Source: Chloroflexota bacterium | Lineage (GTDB): Bacteria > Chloroflexota > UBA11872 > VXOZ01 | Direction: 5' to 3' | Assembly: GCA_963663275.1 (NCBI GenBank) | Contig: OY760183.1 | Coordinates: forward strand, 3,008,001-3,072,000 | DNA length: 64,000 nt | Translations under genes and position numbers: made by a program | The notes under the pieces: model-generated | Databases searched by the model: none | What the model was told of the DNA's origin: nothing | The model's input: only the letters and a program-made list of their open reading frames with translations | Shown: positions 34,818 to 42,126 of the stretch, piece by piece | Layout of the letters: each line of letters begins with the position of its first letter | Position numbering within the stretch: the first letter of the stretch is position 1

Positions 34818-35360
34818 AATCCACGATTTCGAGCGAACCACATCGTGATACTGTGCAAACCATACCGTGAAGTCGAACGACCCGTACCGTTCGCCCTGAG
34901 CATCGTCGAAGGGTGAACGGTAGGGGAAAACGGGCAAAAGTTTCCAAAGCGCCGCCCTCTCCGTTCATGCTTCGACAGGCTCAGCACGAACGGAGAGAGG
35001 CGCCCTGACCCTTATCCACGATAACGTGCGAACCATTCCGCGTAGATGAACGAAGCATTTCCCGTAGACGAGCGACCCCTACCGTGACGACGAACGACCC
35101 ATCCCGTTCGCCCTGAGCATCGTCGAAGGGTGAACGGTACGGGTAATCAGTAAGAGTTCCCAAGACGCCGCTCTTTCCGTTCGTGCTGAGCCTGTCGAAG
35201 CATGAACGGAAAGAGCGGCGTACATTACACTGGGAATAAACAGGACAAGACTCCGTCGTTGCCTCACCCAGTCCGTCATTCCCGCTCACTCAGTCCGTCA
35301 CTCCGGCGCAAGCCGGAATCCAGCTTCCGCTCGCGTCACGGATTCCCTCCCGCGCGGGAT
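34818..35360. repeat. Diverged ~200-bp tandem duplication built from family-B palindromes, followed by GTCATTCC-type palindromes
   Basis: ATCCACGAT..GCGAACCA and TACCGTGA..CGAACGACCC..CCGTTCGCCCTGAGCATCGTCGAAGGGTGAACGGTA each occur twice. Confidence 0.75.
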
Positions 35361-35433
35361 GCGCCGACCGCCTGCATTAAGGTACCCTGATGCCGGTAGA
35401 TTATGTCCGCTCATCTTGGAAGAGGAGACCTCA

Positions 35434-36108
35434 ATGAATTACGAGATTCTGCACCGGCCGTCGTACGCGCTGTTGAAGGTTGACCTAGCCGCCGGTGAGA
35501 GCGTGAGCGCCGAATCCGGCGCGATGGTCAGCATGTCCGACGGCATTGAGATCGAAACCAGTATGCGCGGCGGCCTCTTGGGCGGATTGAAGCGCAAGGT
35601 CCTGGGCGGCGAGTCGTTCTTCGTGAACACATTCAACGCTTCGCAAGACGGCGAGGTGAACTTCGCCCCCAGCCTGCCCGGCGACGTCTACGCGGTGGAA
35701 CTGCGCGGCGAGACCATCTACGCGCAATCCGGGGCCTACATCGCCTCCACCGCCGGCATCGACGTGGACACCTCCTGGGGCGGCGCCAAGACCTTCTTCT
35801 CCGGCGAAGGCTTCTTCATGCTCAAGATCAGTGGCAGCGGCACGGTCTTCCTCTCCAGTTATGGCGCGATTCACGAAGTCGAACTGGCGGCCGGCCAGAC
35901 CTACACCGTGGATACCGGTCACATGGTCTCTTTCGCCGAAGGCGTGGGCTACAACGTGCGGCGCGTGGGCGGAATGAAGTCCACCTTCTTCAGCGGCGAA
36001 GGCCTGGTGGTGGAACTCACCGGCCCCGGCACGATCACCATCCAATCCCGCAGCACCGACGCCCTGCTGGCATGGCTCATACCCCACCTGCCAGACAAGT
36101 CGGGATAA
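35434..36108 (+). CDS. AIM24 (TIGR00266) family protein
   Basis: AESGAMV, GGESFF.N.F, FSGEGFF, VDTGHMV, SGEGLV..LTGPG. Confidence 0.92.
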   Translation: MNYEILHRPSYALLKVDLAAGESVSAESGAMVSMSDGIEIETSMRGGLLGGLKRKVLGGESFFVNTFNASQDGEVNFAPSLPGDVYAVELRGETIYAQSGAYIASTAGIDVDTSWGGAKTFFSGEGFFMLKISGSGTVFLSSYGAIHEVELAAGQTYTVDTGHMVSFAEGVGYNVRRVGGMKSTFFSGEGLVVELTGPGTITIQSRSTDALLAWLIPHLPDKSG

Positions 36109-37375
36109 CGGCAGACTCTTCAAAACTGTCCTCCAGACAAGCTGGGTTCCGTTCAACGGATCCGTCGAGTACGCGGCTAAGCGCCAAAGAGATAGGGAAG
36201 ACTTCCTACTAACGTAGGGACTCTTGATGTTGTTGATAGAGTGCGCAGGCCATGTGTGCCCAGAAGATTGGCAAAGGCTCAGGCCGACGAACATTGAGAT
36301 TGTGCCCAAGGCTGGCATGTCAGACGCTCCCGCGCTACTTCAACGCTGAGACTAGAAGACCCATGCCCTTCGCCAGGCAGCAAAGGCCTGCCTCTCGGGT
36401 TTCCGTATGTCAGTATTTGCGCTTCAGGCGCCCCTGGTTACGGATACTCACTTAGAGTCATTGCAAGCCGCGGTAGATCGTGGCACGAGATTGCCCTGAC
36501 CGATGGTCGCAAGAGCGTGCAGTCTGATACAATGCACATTAGGGACATTGGAGCGGCAGTAAAGAAAGGAGTGGCTACTAGCGCATAACATCAATAGCTG
36601 CTGGTGTCTCTGCATCCTTATTGACACCCCTTGCATGCGAAGTCCAATTCATAAAACCGTGGGAGATTCTTCCCTCCGTTTTAGCGAAAGGACGCGCGAT
36701 GCCCAGCGGAAATGTAACTGACCGCAAGCCCATATATAGAATTATAGATTTGTGGCGAAAGATCGTGCCGGGTAATGCTGTGGGCACTTCGAAGTGTAAC
36801 CCAGAGCCGCTTCTGAAGAGAGTGCGCAATAACAATATAATGACGTTCATTTGGGAGCACAAGATGGGCTGCATATGTTTTCTGGAATTTGTTCTCCTAA
36901 TGTTGGATGTATTTGACAGGTTCAAGTAAGAATCGGTGGTAGAGCCCGTTAATCCGGGAGCCATTGAGTACGCCTTGAACCAATTTTGGACGCGCTTCAA
37001 CCGCGGGCGCTGATGGAAAGTGCTTCGCAAAGCAAGGGTACGATAGGTCGAGGGCCGCCGAGCTTGGAGCATTCAATGTCCCAGGCAAGGCGGCTCTTGG
37101 CGTCGGTAGGCGCGCCGGCTGTCTGCTCTCTGTTTTGGGGGCAAGCCCCTAACTCTCAACGTAAAGGCAAGTCGTGTAGAGTGCTGCGGAGGACACTCCC
37201 GGTTCTCAGGGAAGGCAATGACCTCGGCCGCGCTCGTGCCGACATCCTAGCTGTCCACCGTGGGTAGCTACGTTGTCTTCGCGCACCTGTAGACTGACGT
37301 TCTCTGTGAGTACCTCAGATCGTATCCTGCGCGCGGTCAATTATGCCCTTTTGCCAATGAACTGGCTAAAGACGC

Positions 37376-37404
37376 TTGCGCATGGGGCAACACTGTGCTA
37401 AAAT
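37376..37404 (+). promoter_or_regulatory. Sigma70 promoter with extended -10
   Basis: TTGCGC-17-(TG)cTAAAAT. Confidence 0.55.
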
Positions 37405-37407
37405 CCC

Positions 37408-37567
37408 TACGGATAAGCAAAGTCCAGAAGGAGGTGTGCTATGGTTTAGCAAACGGCATTGGAATTTTTGAAGTGTGAAGAAACATTTAAATTCCAATCT
37501 TTCTGAACAGCGGAATCAAGCAAAGCACTAGCACCTGTCGGTGCTTTTTTTAATTTTGCTTACCGTA
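37408..37567 (+). ncRNA. Candidate structured RNA / leader upstream of HEPN gene
   Basis: 5' arm TACGGATAAGCAAAG pairs with TTTGCTTACCGTA; internal ATTGGAATTT/AAATTCCAAT stem; strong SD followed by ATG-GTT-TAG; terminator. Confidence 0.45.
37530..37551 (+). terminator. Intrinsic terminator between promoter and HEPN gene
   Basis: AGCACC-TGTC-GGTGCT followed by T-tract. Confidence 0.75.
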
Positions 37568-37587
37568 TGGCAAGGAGTGTATTTGCC

Positions 37588-38076
37588 ATGGCCACAATTC
37601 GAAACCGTTCTACGCTGAGTTCTGACCTTCTCTTGGACGAGGCGCTAAGGGCGTGCCAACGGGGCCTCGCGAAGTACTGCTCACGCAAGTTGGTGCCGCC
37701 TTACTTTCGGCCCGATGAACTTGGCGATTTCGTGTTCGCTGTCGTCGGTCATCGATTGAATTTCCGGGGCTCCGATCCGGACCGCCTTTTCGAGCGCATG
37801 GATGAGGACTCCCTCCTCATGTTCATTGATAAGGCAGACTGGAGGATGGCCGATTTCTTCAGTGAGTTGACCCATTACGAGAGAGGGTTTGTCAAGAGCC
37901 TGCTCGTCCAGACCCGCTACTTTCGCGGCCTCTATGCTCACCGGCAGGAGATTCCGATAGACGACCAAGAATACTTCCTTGCAGGGCTCATTCGCCTACT
38001 GAGGATGGTTGAGGCGCACGAGGAAGCGGTTGAGGTCGAAGGCATTCGGATGAGGGCTAGGAGCGCGTCTCACTGA
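37588..38076 (+). CDS. Stand-alone Swt1-like HEPN domain protein (putative RNase)
   Basis: D..LL.FI...W...F..L...ER..V..L...R..RGLYAH..I..DD....L....RLL pattern with RxxxxH motif; AAGGAG RBS. Confidence 0.7.
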   Translation: MATIRNRSTLSSDLLLDEALRACQRGLAKYCSRKLVPPYFRPDELGDFVFAVVGHRLNFRGSDPDRLFERMDEDSLLMFIDKADWRMADFFSELTHYERGFVKSLLVQTRYFRGLYAHRQEIPIDDQEYFLAGLIRLLRMVEAHEEAVEVEGIRMRARSASH

Positions 38077-38369
38077 GAAGCTAGCCGTTGGCGCCGGTTG
38101 AGAGGGCACTAACGACTGCCGGTTTCCTCGTAGGCTAGAGGCCAACGGGCAAAAGGCCGTCGCGATTGGATCAATTGGTGATCCGGGCGCGGCGGCCATT
38201 TGCGTCTGTAGCGGGCGCGTCGGCTGCCCGCCCTTTGTTCATGGGCAAGCCAGATCAGCTTAAGGCTTGAGTAACCGGTGTTTGGCGCCCCAGAGAACGT
38301 CCCATTGCTTGAGGAGAGTGCTCCAAGTCGGTGTCGCGTTCAGTGCAAATTCTGAGTAGCGGCGTTCGG

Positions 38370-38615
38370 CTACAGTTCCGTTTCTAAGGTTCTGGCATGC
38401 GTGAGGTCTGCACCGGTTACGGGACGCGCCTGTGAGGGCAGAACCGTTGCAATGGCCACGGTCTCGCCGTCCAAGAACATGAACTCCACCACGAAGGCCT
38501 CGCTGCCGGGGTGCACGTGGACGATCGTGCCAACGTCGCCTGGCTGCAATTCCTCTCCGGCATCGCCAGAAACGGCAGAGAGGAGTACGATTTGTTCGTG
38601 CTCCTTGACTACTAT
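38370..38615 (-). pseudogene. DUF4926-like protein with ATA in place of a start codon (not in ORF track)
   Basis: IVVKEHEQIVLL..ELQPGDVGTIVHVHPGSEAFVVEFMFLDGETVAIATVLPSQARP..; GGAGG 8 nt upstream of ATA. Confidence 0.7.
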
Positions 38616-38740
38616 TTCATGTTCCTCCTGGGCTTTGCCGCATTAAGTCTTGAGTATTCGCTGTCCTGTTCAATCCGCCAGCCGGTCACGACGCGCTGGC
38701 CTCGTCCTTCCAGCGTCCTATTCTCACCCTCGTCGTAGTG
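38612..38740 (-). pseudogene. 3' remnant of DUF6883-like partner gene
   Basis: GENRTLEGRGQRVVTGWRIEQDSEYSRLNAAKP resembles the DUF6883 C-terminus; stop overlaps the DUF4926 start. Confidence 0.45.
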
Positions 38741-39047
38741 TCAAGAACTATGGACGGCATGAGAGCAGCATTCGCAACCTCGTGGACTGCGTGATGTACT
38801 GCTATGACATCTGAAGAGTCTGCCAAGGCGCAGCAAGCATCCGATTCGACAGTCTTGGCCACTTGGTTCGACCGCTTGTGCCGTCGTAAAGTGCAAGTGG
38901 CCCATCTTTGGAAGCAAGAAGTGGCAATAGGAGATGTGCGACTGGATACAGCCCCTGAGCGTCAACGACTGAAAGCCTCCATGGATTTTTATCTAAAACC
39001 AAACGGGACTGGCGATACAGCACCAGTCCCGTTCATCTTGTAACGAA

Positions 39048-39287
39048 TCAATCAGTCTGCTGACGCTTCTCCTGTTCCTCTTTCCGCATCGGGTCCAACC
39101 CTGAACGGATTGCAGATAGGCTCCGAGCAAAGCAGTAGGGAATCACGGCTACGCACAAGGCGATAGCGGCAGCGGCGGCCTCCTGCGGGGAACTTTCGGC
39201 AGCAGATACACCGATTGCGAATACCCCACAGCCCGCCAGAGAAGCCAGCAGAGCGAATAGCCAAGCCAGTGAGTTAAGGATACGCAT
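39048..39287 (-). CDS. Small two-TM membrane protein
   Basis: SPQEAAAAAIALCVAVIPYCFAR motif, seen in small phage/island membrane proteins. Confidence 0.65.
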   Translation of the reverse strand: MRILNSLAWLFALLASLAGCGVFAIGVSAAESSPQEAAAAAIALCVAVIPYCFARSLSAIRSGLDPMRKEEQEKRQQTD

Positions 39288-39298
39288 TGAAGCACCGC

Positions 39299-39940
39299 CT
39301 AGTTGCCAGCCGGAACTGGAACGAATCCCCGATCCATAGCGCGGAATTCAATGCGGGTGAGAGTAACCTGCTCGTTTACGTCGAAGATGGCAAGGCACGA
39401 CAGCGACCCAAGAGGCGATATCTGCTCGTCACAACCGATGATATCGACTGGCTCGAACTGTCGCCCGACTGCGTCAAAGCCTATCAGCCCTTCGTCATGA
39501 GAGAATGTGTCCAGATCGCCAACGTGAAACTTGCTCGGGCCAATGCCAACATTGGTGAGACGGAGTCCGACAAGGAGTAACTTGTGGTTATCCGCACTTG
39601 GGGTATATGTCTTGCCCCAAAAGCCGCTTGTCTCGAAGGATTCCCGTCTCTGAACTCCTAGCACCTCAAAAGCAAAGTTGCCAATGCGCGTGCCGGAATC
39701 GAAGGACAGGGAACTATCTGACAGCGGCAGTTTTGAATCTATCTCAATGGTGACGGGTACCTCGATCTGGTACTCGACTCCGTCGTAAGTGAACGTCAGC
39801 AGGGCCGTACTGCTGACTGAGGCTTCAATAGTTACTTTGCCGCCCTCGACCGTGACGCTTCCCTCGTTGGCAAATAGCGTCGGCACAAACAAGAACAGCA
39901 GTATACTCAGGGCAAGAGAACGAACGATCAGCCTACGCAT
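39299..39940 (-). CDS. Secreted protein with DUF4352-like Ig domain
   Basis: Signal peptide MRRLIVRSLAL..LFA; L.V.LRLTN.G..D..GRQFE..I.P....LAIFDV. Confidence 0.6.
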   Translation of the reverse strand: MRRLIVRSLALSILLFLFVPTLFANEGSVTVEGGKVTIEASVSSTALLTFTYDGVEYQIEVPVTIEIDSKLPLSDSSLSFDSGTRIGNFAFEVLGVQRRESFETSGFWGKTYTPSADNHKLLLVGLRLTNVGIGPSKFHVGDLDTFSHDEGLIGFDAVGRQFEPVDIIGCDEQISPLGSLSCLAIFDVNEQVTLTRIEFRAMDRGFVPVPAGN

Positions 39941-40075
39941 AGCGGTGCCTCCTCGCGACACAAACTTGAACTTTGGTCGCGACACCTAAGCACCTGAGCG
40001 AGCCGCGAGGAGACAAGTGTCCCTCGGCTCAAGCTTGTGCCTCGAAGCTCGCTCCAAATACCGTATAGGTGTCGC
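39941..40075 (-). ncRNA. Candidate cis-regulatory leader RNA, copy A
   Basis: Diverged copy of 40183-40319; GCGACACCT/AGGTGTCGC stem, GCGAGC/GCTCGC stem, anti-SD CTCCTCGCG. Confidence 0.6.
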
Positions 40076-40082
40076 AAGCAGC

Positions 40083-40174
40083 ATCGTATCAGGAGGCGAA
40101 ATTCACGTCAATTCTATGTCTACTTATTTCGCATGAGCCCATCATTGACGCAATTCTTCCCACTATGCTAATGT
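40083..40174. promoter_or_regulatory. Back-to-back divergent sigma70 promoters
   Basis: Minus strand: TTGACG(40111-40106)-17-TACGAT; plus strand: TTGACG(40145)-18-TAATGT; each -10 lies 7-8 nt before a leader copy. Confidence 0.6.
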
Positions 40175-40182
40175 AACGCCAC

Positions 40183-40319
40183 GCGACACCTTAAGAGGCC
40201 CTGGCGAGCTTCGGGCACACACCTTGAGCTATTGGTTTAATTTGTCTCCTGGCGGCTCGCACGTGCGCTTGAGGTGTCGCGACCAAGAGCTCATCGTAGT
40301 GTCGCGAGGAGGCGTCATT
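40183..40319 (+). ncRNA. Candidate cis-regulatory leader RNA, copy B
   Basis: Same stems and order as copy A; ends in GTGTCGCGAGGAGG before the GTG start. Confidence 0.6.
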
Positions 40320-40562
40320 GTGGGTACTACTGAGATTCTCATTCTCTCTCTCGTCGTAGTCGCCGGCTACTTCATCCCGCTCATTGTTGCACTGGTCCGG
40401 CGCAAGACCGGGCGCATGCAGGTCTTCATCGTCAACCTCTTCTTCGGTTGGACGTTCATCGGTTGGGTTATCGCATTGGTCATGGCATTCGGCTCAGACA
40501 GCGTCACTGTGGTGCACACAGTAGACCAGGGTACAAGGTCTGAAACGAAGGACGGTGAGTAA
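40320..40562 (+). CDS. Superinfection immunity (Imm)-family membrane protein
   Basis: YFIP.IVA..R......IF.VNLFFGWTFIGWVIALVMA signature. Confidence 0.85.
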   Translation: MGTTEILILSLVVVAGYFIPLIVALVRRKTGRMQVFIVNLFFGWTFIGWVIALVMAFGSDSVTVVHTVDQGTRSETKDGE

Positions 40563-41185
40563 TGCGGGATACCAACGAGCAAATCGCCATTGAGCGCATT
40601 GACCCCGGCCAGGATAAGGAACTGTTGGCGCACATAGCCAACGAAGTTAGCGCGATTCTCACCGAGAACGAGCAATTCCAATACATCGCGCATCAGAATT
40701 GGACGGCTTTCGGTCAACGCAAGGATGCCCTCGTTGCCACCAACAACCGCTTGATCATCTATCAACGCCATTGGTTCGGGCAGTTAACGTTCCACGACTT
40801 TCTTTGGGAGGATGTCAAGAACGTCACGATCCGCGAGGGATTCATAGCCGCCCACATTTCATGCGAACTGACCGATGGCTGGACACACTTTGCCGGCGGC
40901 CTGGTGAAGACTCAGGCCCGCGCGCTCTATGCTATCTGCCAGCAGAAAGAACAAGAGTGGCGCGAGCGTCGCCGCGTGCGCAAAATGGAAGAAGAACGCG
41001 CCCGCGCGGGCGGCACTCAGATTACGGTGCCCGGCAGTCAAATGACGGCACCGAGTAGCGAGGCACCTAACGAAGGTGGATCCTCCCTAGACAAACTGAC
41101 GCAAGCGAAGCAAATGTTCGACCAAGAGTTAATCTCTGAATCGGAGTACGAGACGTTGAAGGCGAACATCCTTAGCAAGATGTGA
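40562..41185 (+). CDS. Bacterial PH-domain protein with C-terminal SHOCT
   Basis: L..NE..QYIA.Q..ALVATNNRLI..; LDKL.QAKQM.DQELISE.EYE.LK..IL; TAATG coupling to imm. Confidence 0.8.
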   Translation: MRDTNEQIAIERIDPGQDKELLAHIANEVSAILTENEQFQYIAHQNWTAFGQRKDALVATNNRLIIYQRHWFGQLTFHDFLWEDVKNVTIREGFIAAHISCELTDGWTHFAGGLVKTQARALYAICQQKEQEWRERRRVRKMEEERARAGGTQITVPGSQMTAPSSEAPNEGGSSLDKLTQAKQMFDQELISESEYETLKANILSKM

Positions 41186-41424
41186 CCATTAAAACATCAT
41201 GCCGCTGCCTGAACTTCAAGACGTGCAAGAGTAAAACCACACTCGCTGGATGTGCGACTGACAAGATTGGTATTCTTGTGCACTTCCCATATGGGTCTCG
41301 CTCAGCGTGGTTTACGCGAAGGCGCATTGCCCAAGCGAGCACTCCCCTGCTACCCCCGCTCTTGAGCGTGTCTACTAAGTGTTGCGAGCGTGCCGTGGAT
41401 GTCGCTGGTCAGCCCTTAACTCAA

Positions 41425-42126
41425 TTAGGACGTTTCGCCGTTTTCGCTGTTCCAGGCGCGGCTGCCTTTGACGCGCAGATAGGCTGCGCCGGCTTCGATC
41501 CAGGCTTCGCGGTAGGCGTAGAGGGTTTTCTCGTTCGCGCCGGCCACGCTGCGCACCTCTTCCGCGGTCTGATGCAGCCAGGGCACGTTGTCCGCTACCT
41601 CGTCGGGGCGCTCCAGCAGGAAGCGGCGCATCTCCGCCAGCTTGGTCAGGCCGCCGGGCACGTCCGGTCCGGTGATCTCCCGCATCTCCTCCGCCGCGGC
41701 CAGCAGCGCGTCGGCGGCTTCCTTGTAGACCTCCCAGCGGCGCTGCATGCGTTCCATCATGTGCTGGATGTCGTCCAGCAGCGCCTCCACGTGCGCCGCG
41801 TCTGTGCCCACCCGCGCCGGTTCTTCCTCCTCGATGCGCTTCAGTTCGTCGATGCTGCCGCAGACGTCGGTATAGTGAGTCTGGCGCGCGGCGCCTTCCG
41901 CCGTCATGTCCGGCACGAACTGGTTGGCCCCGGCCCAGCGCACCCGGGGCAACTCCATCATGCCGCCGTCCTCGAAATACACCAGCGGCGGTTGGTTGTG
42001 GCCGGCCTCTTCCACGTGGGCCCGGCCCAGGGCGATTTTTTCCAGTATCTTCTCGCGGTGCGGCGACGGCGGCAGCCACCGCTCGTCAATACCAGCAACG
42101 GCAACTCTCTCTTCTACCTGGCTCAT
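41425..42126 (-). CDS. Hypothetical helical protein
   Basis: Host-like codon usage, GAGGAG RBS; no family recognised. Confidence 0.7.
   Translation of the reverse strand: MSQVEERVAVAGIDERWLPPSPHREKILEKIALGRAHVEEAGHNQPPLVYFEDGGMMELPRVRWAGANQFVPDMTAEGAARQTHYTDVCGSIDELKRIEEEEPARVGTDAAHVEALLDDIQHMMERMQRRWEVYKEAADALLAAAEEMREITGPDVPGGLTKLAEMRRFLLERPDEVADNVPWLHQTAEEVRSVAGANEKTLYAYREAWIEAGAAYLRVKGSRAWNSENGETS

Follow-up and report, generated by a model that had tools for sequence, protein, structure and literature searches.

Riboswitches of the preQ1-II, SAM-II and SAM-V classes, which are catalogued in Rfam, sequester the Shine-Dalgarno (SD) sequence of their messages in an H-type pseudoknot. The present analysis concerns an element of about 140 nucleotides (nt) that occurs in a 64-kb stretch of Chloroflexota DNA (contig OY760183.1; the whole stretch is hereafter called the window) as two inverted, diverged copies, A and B, lying between two divergent operons. 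Each copy has a promoter-like site on its 5' side and a strong SD and a start codon at its 3' end, and four pairings of the element (P1, P2, a pseudoknot helix and a helix between an anti-SD and the SD) are shown by compensatory changes to covary. Its closest printed analogue appears to be the timP mRNA of the enterobacterial timPR type I toxin-antitoxin system, in whose 5' untranslated region a pseudoknot and long-range pairings open or lock an SD-sequestering stem, followed by the aapA3 mRNA of the aapA3/IsoA3 pair of Helicobacter pylori, a type I toxin message with metastable anti-SD hairpins, as far as the excerpts of the two papers describe these leaders (PMC13000454, PMC6733600).

By the excerpted account of timP, the likeness is that of a purely RNA-structural switch of initiation in which an alternative pairing locks the inactive state (PMC13000454). 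On the same account the pseudoknot of timP promotes the open state, whereas that of the Chloroflexota leader appears to promote the closed one. There is, moreover, no likeness in sequence or model (the leader has no Rfam match), no antitoxin RNA was seen for the Chloroflexota leader, and the proteins behind this leader number in the dozens, are unrelated to one another and are mostly large and secreted. With aapA3, as excerpted, it shares internal anti-SD sequences and, as predicted, an order of co-transcriptional folding that sets SD availability (PMC6733600). The transient hairpins of aapA3, however, hide the SD, whereas the early structure of the Chloroflexota leader is predicted to hide the anti-SD and to leave the SD open; the Chloroflexota copies also stand mostly before genes that are not toxin-sized, and no antisense RNA was seen for them.

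The preQ1-II, SAM-II and SAM-V riboswitches resemble the leader in that the SD pairs inside an upstream hairpin, forming an H-type pseudoknot that blocks initiation. The Chloroflexota leader is larger than these, has an extra crossing helix of 12-17 base pairs (bp), has no conserved unpaired pocket and no Rfam match, and stands in a gene context that is not metabolic. The reuse of homologous "mobile" promoters before unrelated genes in prokaryotes offers another comparison, since the Chloroflexota promoter plus leader is likewise found before many non-homologous genes within and between genomes; as far as the excerpt of that study describes the phenomenon, the difference is that conservation in Chloroflexota lies mainly in an RNA fold with compensatory changes and not in near-identical DNA (PMC3575422). 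The Chloroflexi-1 RNA motif (RF01698) is a candidate structured RNA reported, in the excerpted account, only from Chloroflexus aggregans (PMC2864571), and its model matches neither the window region nor 10 other loci at E up to 1-10.

Four pairings covary in the leader

Aligned with each other, copies A and B have a mean column identity of 81%, and the sequence blocks from which an initial annotation of the window had concluded that they are diverged copies of one element were located as it described. Their extents, with scores from two covariance models (R1 and R2, described below), are as follows, in window coordinates.

39938..40077, minus strand: leader copy A, the whole element including its ATG (39940-39938); R1 146.9 bits, R2 110.6 bits, and alignments.
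40181..40322, plus strand: leader copy B, the whole element including its GTG (40320-40322); R1 124.6 bits, R2 102.8 bits.

Copy A folds at -63.9 kcal/mol (z -3.7), which 0/200 shuffles equal or better, and copy B at -64.6 kcal/mol (z -2.8; 3/200 shuffles). The nonamer GTGTCGCGA occurs exactly four times in the window, always within copies A and B; with one mismatch allowed it shows no enrichment in the window (23 matches against 32 expected). Within each copy, two helices (P1 and P2), a loop-to-linker pseudoknot helix (PK) and an anti-SD were delimited.

40066..40077, minus strand: copy A, P1 5' arm (sequence blocks, covariation).
39977..39988, minus strand: copy A, P1 3' arm (sequence blocks, covariation).
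40037..40060, minus strand: copy A, P2 5' arm, including a purine-rich SD mimic, CGAGG (fold, covariation).
40027..40041, minus strand: copy A, PK 5' strand, which shares bases with the upper end of the P2 5' arm (pairs with its partner at -24.9 kcal/mol).
39957..39971, minus strand: copy A, PK 3' strand (loop-to-linker pairing).
40002..40014, minus strand: copy A, anti-SD GUCUCCUCGCGGC, with the SD mimic in P2 or the SD region as partner (-27.3 kcal/mol with the SD strand).
39947..39959, minus strand: copy A, SD strand, core GGAGG at 39948-39952 (anti-SD complementarity, covariation).
40182..40193, plus strand: copy B, P1 5' arm (sequence blocks, fold).
40270..40281, plus strand: copy B, P1 3' arm (sequence blocks, fold).
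40198..40218, plus strand: copy B, P2 5' arm with SD mimic (fold).
40214..40235, plus strand: copy B, PK 5' strand (-21.0 kcal/mol).
40283..40303, plus strand: copy B, PK 3' strand (loop-to-linker pairing).
40244..40256, plus strand: copy B, anti-SD, with one G-G mismatch against the SD strand (-23.9 kcal/mol).
40301..40313, plus strand: copy B, SD strand, core GGAGG at 40308-40312 (anti-SD complementarity).

Covariation was read on MAFFT alignments made without reference to structure, using 500 shuffles and a set of 54 distinct sense copies, from which the duplicates L032, L035, L037 and L076 and other repeats of genome G006 were left out; the mean column identity of the set is 42%. P1 is 82-91% paired and 11/12 of its pairs have changed on both sides, while the anti-SD:SD helix (13 bp) is 93.7% paired with 8/13 pairs changed on both sides. 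For these two helices 0/500 shuffles reach any measure of the test, and slid partners are 33-49% paired. Where the SD changes (GGAGG, GGGGG, GGGAG), the anti-SD changes with it (CUCC, CCCC, UCCC); the pairs counted at the variable SD position are CG 24, UA 21 and UG 5. In P2, 7/11 pairs have changed on both sides among the 22 copies from the genus. The PK strands are too variable for alignment, and an alignment-free test was therefore made on 45 non-redundant copies, in which pairing with a copy's own partner was compared with pairing to the partners of other copies. Own partners were the better ones for PK (-20.0 versus -13.2 kcal/mol, with the own partner in the top 3 for 30/45), as they were for P1 (-18.6 versus -8.6), P2 (-21.0 versus -14.6) and anti-SD:SD (-21.4 versus -17.3). 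The anti-SD:SD helix contains 113 G-U against 15 A-C oppositions, which places the pairing on the sense RNA and not on the DNA. Nor is its covariation an echo of the minimum free energy fold, because nested folding yields this helix in just 3/54 copies.

The structured anti-SD leader of the initial annotation, with its pseudoknot-like contact between loop and linker, is thus borne out by the covariation of all four pairings. A third GTGTCGC beside the SD, which the same annotation had offered as a rival partner for P1, did not fare as well; it is present in 5/54 copies and does not covary (own -6.3 versus other -5.8 kcal/mol).

Conservation is distributed in a characteristic manner. All positions conserved in at least 90% of the 54 copies belong to the anti-SD, the SD, the 3' arm of P1, the spacer or the start codon. 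Linkers, junctions and loops vary freely in length and sequence, the PK strands have no conserved sequence, and no conserved unpaired pocket was seen in the junctions or loops of the 54 copies. In topological terms, P1 and P2 are nested, PK crosses both, and anti-SD:SD crosses P1 and PK; since the helices cross one another, they cannot all be nested. The anti-SD:SD helix shares 3 nt with the lower part of P2 (P2a) and abuts it without a linker, like a classical H-type pseudoknot. The best P2 duplex, found by an energy optimiser, has a purine-rich SD mimic of the AGGAG/AGGGG type that pairs with at least 4/5 of the anti-SD core bases in 43/54 copies, and a median of 5 nt is common to the P2 5' arm and the 5' strand of PK.

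A start-like NUG triplet overlaps the first base of the anti-SD in both window copies (40014-40016 in A, 40242-40244 in B). Such a triplet stands at the 5' edge of the anti-SD (alignment column 107-109) in 28/54 copies (ATG 19, GTG 7, TTG 2), mostly inside a self-complementary CRYG tetranucleotide, and serves in some copies to close a small apical hairpin; among the 54, it is not followed by a conserved upstream open reading frame (ORF). A leader peptide or upstream ORF was also considered for the element as a whole and rejected: stop-free frames and internal ATGs are common in the 54 copies, but neither frame nor length is conserved.

Distribution of the leader and the genes that it heads

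A blastn search of the window's own 3.53-Mb genome found only the twin, and copy B gave partial matches in 2 of 60 relatives. One of these heads an unrelated gene of 85 amino acids (aa); the other heads an imm homologue and has compensatory changes in P1 and G-U replacements in P2. Sequence search alone badly under-counts the family. The covariance model R1, built on 4 copies, matches 14/17 genomes of the genus (E<=1), and R2, built on 22 distinct copies, matches 15/17 of them (E<=0.01) and 32/98 genomes of the class. By family, the R2 matches are distributed as f1 14/16, f5 8/9, f4 6/19, f6 3/38, f3 0/14 and f2 0/1; many genomes have several matches, with a maximum of 14 in one genome. Among 136 sampled genomes of other Chloroflexota classes, R2 with stricter filters found none. 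A third, weaker copy in the window's own genome lies outside the window (C1:741481-741628, minus strand; L077:2501-2648; 34 bits), heading a 560-aa secreted protein with PD40 repeats and a recurrent N-terminal domain, CEFRLGF...GECLENE, that has no Pfam family.

The element matches no family in Rfam 15. This library gave two matches of 14-16 bits in window region 39000-41500 at E<=10, both unrelated and both outside the element, and 0 matches in ten further loci of the family at E<=1; the initial annotation, too, had not recognised the motif as a known one. With copy A as query, blastn gave no match in phage and plasmid collections, and a strict anti-SD...SD pattern had 0 matches in viral contigs. 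In genome contigs the same pattern gave 9 loci, of which 2 are real and 7 were taken as chance, lying in G+C-rich DNA with no P1 or start-codon context; a wider pattern in JGI metagenome contigs gave one locus (L045), which was judged to be chance. A literature search turned up no description of such a leader in Chloroflexota. The element thus has every appearance of an uncatalogued leader family, found in one class of Chloroflexota, and not of a private twin.

The copies are fixed before start codons and not scattered at random. For 47/54 copies, the 3' end of the model coincides with the start of an ORF of at least 40 aa, with a strong SD (AAGGAGG/AAGGGGG) 5-8 nt before the start codon; in the remaining 7/54 the downstream genes look decayed. 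A hydrophobic segment is found in 40 of the 47 downstream ORFs and is N-terminal in 38. The families behind the leader include Imm_superinfect (three lineages), bPH_1, bPH_3+SHOCT, DUF4352, DUF4234, LRR and PD40, along with two recurrent secreted families that have no Pfam match. Most of the headed ORFs encode signal-peptide proteins of 200-625 aa (LRR, PD40, DUF4352), and some encode membrane proteins of just 50-92 aa (DUF4234, Imm and others). These genes belong to many unrelated families with no common metabolic or transport pathway, and the theme that they share is export or membrane location.

The leader is modular. The genus has 13 other loci with Imm homologues: no leader was matched at 10 of them, another gave only a weak partial match (11.9 bits), and at one more imm comes second in an operon that the leader heads. 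At L024/L094 (G012, contig C8, ~146822-148002) the leader is followed by a 260-aa secreted protein of the CEFRLGF family and then by an Imm_superinfect homologue. Because Imm_superinfect is here the second gene, behind a CEFRLGF-family protein, the same gene families appear to recombine behind the leader in different orders. One genome, G006, has a 1.96-kb repeat in five identical copies (L075:732-2692) that encodes an IS1595-family transposase (DDE_Tnp_IS1595, E 6.9e-35) and carries, on the strand opposite to the transposase, a leader copy heading a 122-aa bPH_1 protein. The module of leader and gene thus travels in G006 as a passenger of the insertion sequence.

A two-state switch and its alternatives

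The reading preferred here, to which a rough probability of 0.42 is given, is that each copy serves its operon as 5' untranslated leader and is a cis-acting structured RNA that gates translation initiation as a self-contained structural switch. Judging from the promoter-like sites, transcription would start within a few bases of P1. P1 and P2 together would make a long hairpin of the first ~100 nt, and the SD mimic in its upper part would hold the anti-SD, so that the SD, emerging last, is free (ON). As the SD is transcribed last, this open state should form first. The 3' tail would then invade: the linker before the SD would pair with the P2 apex (PK), overlapping and displacing the SD mimic, and the freed anti-SD would pair with the real SD in a helix of 11-14 bp that abuts P2a (OFF). 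We infer the default state, the alternation of the two states in the cell and the trigger of the change. Such a device would be self-contained, with no dedicated small ligand, and would limit translation to a window of time after synthesis; alternatively, the equally self-contained message would stay closed until some activity unwinds or cuts it open. A self-contained switch is favoured because no conserved unpaired pocket was seen and the PK strands have no conserved sequence: the fixed pattern of conservation, together with an unconserved PK, argues against both a ligand pocket and sequence-specific recognition of the trigger helix.

Several points weigh against this switch. Summed duplex energies, which omit loop and pseudoknot penalties, are -44.0 kcal/mol for PK plus anti-SD:SD versus -30.5 kcal/mol for P2, and on paper the closed state would win; a G+C-rich SD helix of 13 bp may also be hard to open. 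As the overlap of P2a and anti-SD:SD is only 3 nt, the closed state could leave most of P2 in place, the mimic alone competing. In the 22-copy MAFFT alignment the columns of the mimic pair poorly: the two-pair top helix reaches 40%, and in the next three pairs 5-8/22 cells are unpaired. It may also be sterically impossible for three helices of 12-15 bp that all cross one another to form at once. Finally, the 54-copy set does not include the weak atypical matches L081 and L048 or ~20 weaker class-wide R2 matches.

A wider reading, which is bolder and which we regard as doubtful, takes the leader family for a class-wide post-transcriptional regulon. It would gate translation of a large share of the accessory proteins (LRR, PD40, DUF4352, Imm, PH-domain) that are secreted or placed in the membrane, and its signal, perhaps a cue from the envelope or a host, would be sensed through a ligand or factor; the three crossing helices round the SD would then be a new riboswitch-like architecture.

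It is unlikely that the leader does not switch at all, its 5'-terminal hairpin guarding the mRNA from 5'-end-dependent decay and a fixed fold round a strong SD giving steady expression. The position of P1, which starts ~0-4 nt from the predicted transcription start, would suit such a stabiliser, as would the strong SD 5-8 nt before the start codon and the dominance of the hairpin state in nested folding. A stabiliser needs no anti-SD, however, whereas here the anti-SD appears to have two maintained partners, and both anti-SD:SD and PK covary though they lie outside the hairpin.

The self-contained switch leaves the ribosome-binding site to the RNA itself; in another account, judged quite unlikely, the same two anti-SD states are set by a trans-acting protein or small RNA, making the headed genes an envelope-protein regulon. 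The factor would recognise the base of P1 (UGCnACAG/CUGUnGCAAG) or the anti-SD, as the parts conserved in sequence. P1 does keep several nearly invariant bases despite being a helix, as protein-binding stems often do, and the leader is shared by unrelated genes with one theme, the hydrophobic segment of 40/47. The PK strands, the apparent drivers of change, nevertheless have no conserved sequence, and the conserved bases of P1 could instead reflect the initial transcribed sequence; no candidate for the factor came up, although no search was aimed at one.

Control by a small molecule, with a ligand stabilising the hairpin or the pseudoknotted state as in preQ1-II and SAM-II, is improbable. A length of ~140 nt, four covarying helices, a pseudoknot topology and sequestration of the SD are all features that a riboswitch would have. 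Yet the invariant and near-invariant positions are all in the anti-SD, the SD, P1 and the start codon, with none in a junction or loop, where sequences and lengths vary freely; the downstream genes have no common metabolic or transport pathway, and no Rfam family matches. From the initial annotation, which had proposed a riboswitch-like or protein- or RNA-responsive switch, the anti-SD leader is retained, while the failure to see a conserved unpaired pocket speaks against a classical riboswitch. RNA thermometers of the ROSE/fourU type have a short, imperfect and weakly stable SD helix that melts near growth temperature; this candidate was rejected for the leader, whose anti-SD:SD helix averages -21.4 kcal/mol over 11-14 pairs.

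Very improbable is a control like that of type I toxins, in which the leaders would silence toxic small membrane proteins with an unseen antisense RNA as partner. Some headed genes do encode membrane proteins of 50-92 aa, and toxin mRNAs, in the excerpted accounts, use anti-SD hairpins and structural switches (PMC6733600, PMC13000454), but most headed ORFs encode signal-peptide proteins of 200-625 aa, a promoter scan of the window's intergenic region found no antisense promoter, and antisense covariance-model matches merely echo the hairpin. That the element is a feature of the DNA, either operator half-sites (the GCGACAC heptamers) or a mobile repeat resembling a miniature inverted-repeat transposable element, would suit its conspicuous inverted repeats, its spread before unrelated genes and its ride on the five-copy IS1595 unit of one genome, but is scarcely credible and largely refuted by strand-specific covariation, as the heptamer changes while complementarity stays (GCGACACC, GCCACAGU, GCUACAGC and others), G-U is tolerated far more than A-C, the copies are diverged and fixed in place and orientation before start codons, and the nonamer is not enriched in the window.

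Promoters, neighbouring genes and meaning

The initial annotation had given each copy a promoter of its own, TTGACG with a -10 box, and this holds well for copy A and less well for copy B.

40083..40111, minus strand: promoter-like site of copy A, TTGACG-17 nt-TACGAT with TG before the -10 box; sigma-70-like, 9/12.
40145..40174, plus strand: weaker promoter-like site of copy B, TTGACG-18 nt-TAATGT; merely 8/12 and absent from the list of the scan.

That scan, for sigma-70-like sites in the window's intergenic region, found 2 against 0.3 expected from shuffles. In copy A the end of the -10 box is 5 nt from the start of the element. Across the family, a promoter-like match of at least 9/12 lies just 5' of the element in 20/54 copies versus 2/1080 random positions, and the -10 boxes finish 4-10 nt short of P1, a spacing from which the transcript is expected to begin at P1 or just ahead of it. 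Directly 5' of the -35 lies a box close to GGAATTAGTAGA (window 40112-40131; elsewhere about -47 to -54 from the element start), found in 8/54 copies, all within the genus, and in 26/1080 random 50-nt control windows; an UP-like element, a site for a factor and a remnant of the duplicated unit are all conceivable. In copies L060, L065, L070, L073 and L088 (families f4 and f6) the 50 nt 5' of the element show by eye the pattern ~GCTTTC, ~17 nt, TGCTACC(A/G)T, which differs from the TTGACA-type sites of the genus and hints at another promoter class.

The genes of the two window operons are the following.

39299..39940, minus strand: gene headed by copy A, a 213-aa signal-peptide protein with an N-terminal hydrophobic segment and no Pfam family (Pfam scan).
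39048..39287, minus strand: second gene of the copy A operon, a 79-aa membrane protein, DUF5325-like below the cut-off; phrog_12304.
40320..40562, plus strand: gene headed by copy B, an 80-aa Imm_superinfect membrane protein (PF14373, E 8.9e-16); phrog_1039.
40562..41185, plus strand: second gene of the copy B operon, a 207-aa bPH_3 + SHOCT protein.

The Imm_superinfect, bPH_3+SHOCT, signal-peptide and small transmembrane proteins are thus as first annotated; the label "Ig-like", which had been given to the signal-peptide protein, finds no Pfam match in the window protein. Orthologues of this 213-aa protein stand behind the same leader in L023, L044 and L047, and one orthologue has a weak Big_3_5 match (E 0.0074). 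A homologue of the bPH_3+SHOCT protein is itself headed by the leader in another family of the class (L066). The proposal that the twin leaders co-regulate a phage-exclusion cassette finds no support: the leader is class-wide and multi-copy and precedes many unrelated envelope-protein genes, PADLOC gave 0 matches for 7 neighbouring window proteins, PHROGs merely repeats the Imm family name as regards phage exclusion or defence, and 10 of the 13 other Imm loci of the genus are without a leader match.

Both leader operons lie in a stretch of lower G+C content (window ~36000-41500; 0.51-0.57 versus roughly 0.60-0.70 outside), which may be an acquired island. It also carries a DUF4926 gene (38370-38549, minus strand) and ORFs without Pfam families at 37567-38076 and 36578-37072; no tRNA was found within window 25000-50000. 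Just before this stretch lies an AIM24-family gene (PF01987, E 6.5e-74) at 35359-36108, plus strand.

Chloroflexota are a large and mostly uncultured phylum, from which, to our knowledge, very few regulatory RNAs are known. The leader adds an abundant family with a fold that is well supported by compensatory changes and that is tied to exported and membrane proteins, and it may provide a concrete, testable model for post-transcriptional control of surface and secreted proteins in these organisms. It would also show strand exchange at work in a natural switch, where access to the ribosome-binding site is settled by an SD mimic and a covarying "trigger" helix. The covariance model can be used to annotate the element and, because the leader marks translation starts, to correct start-codon calls in these genomes.

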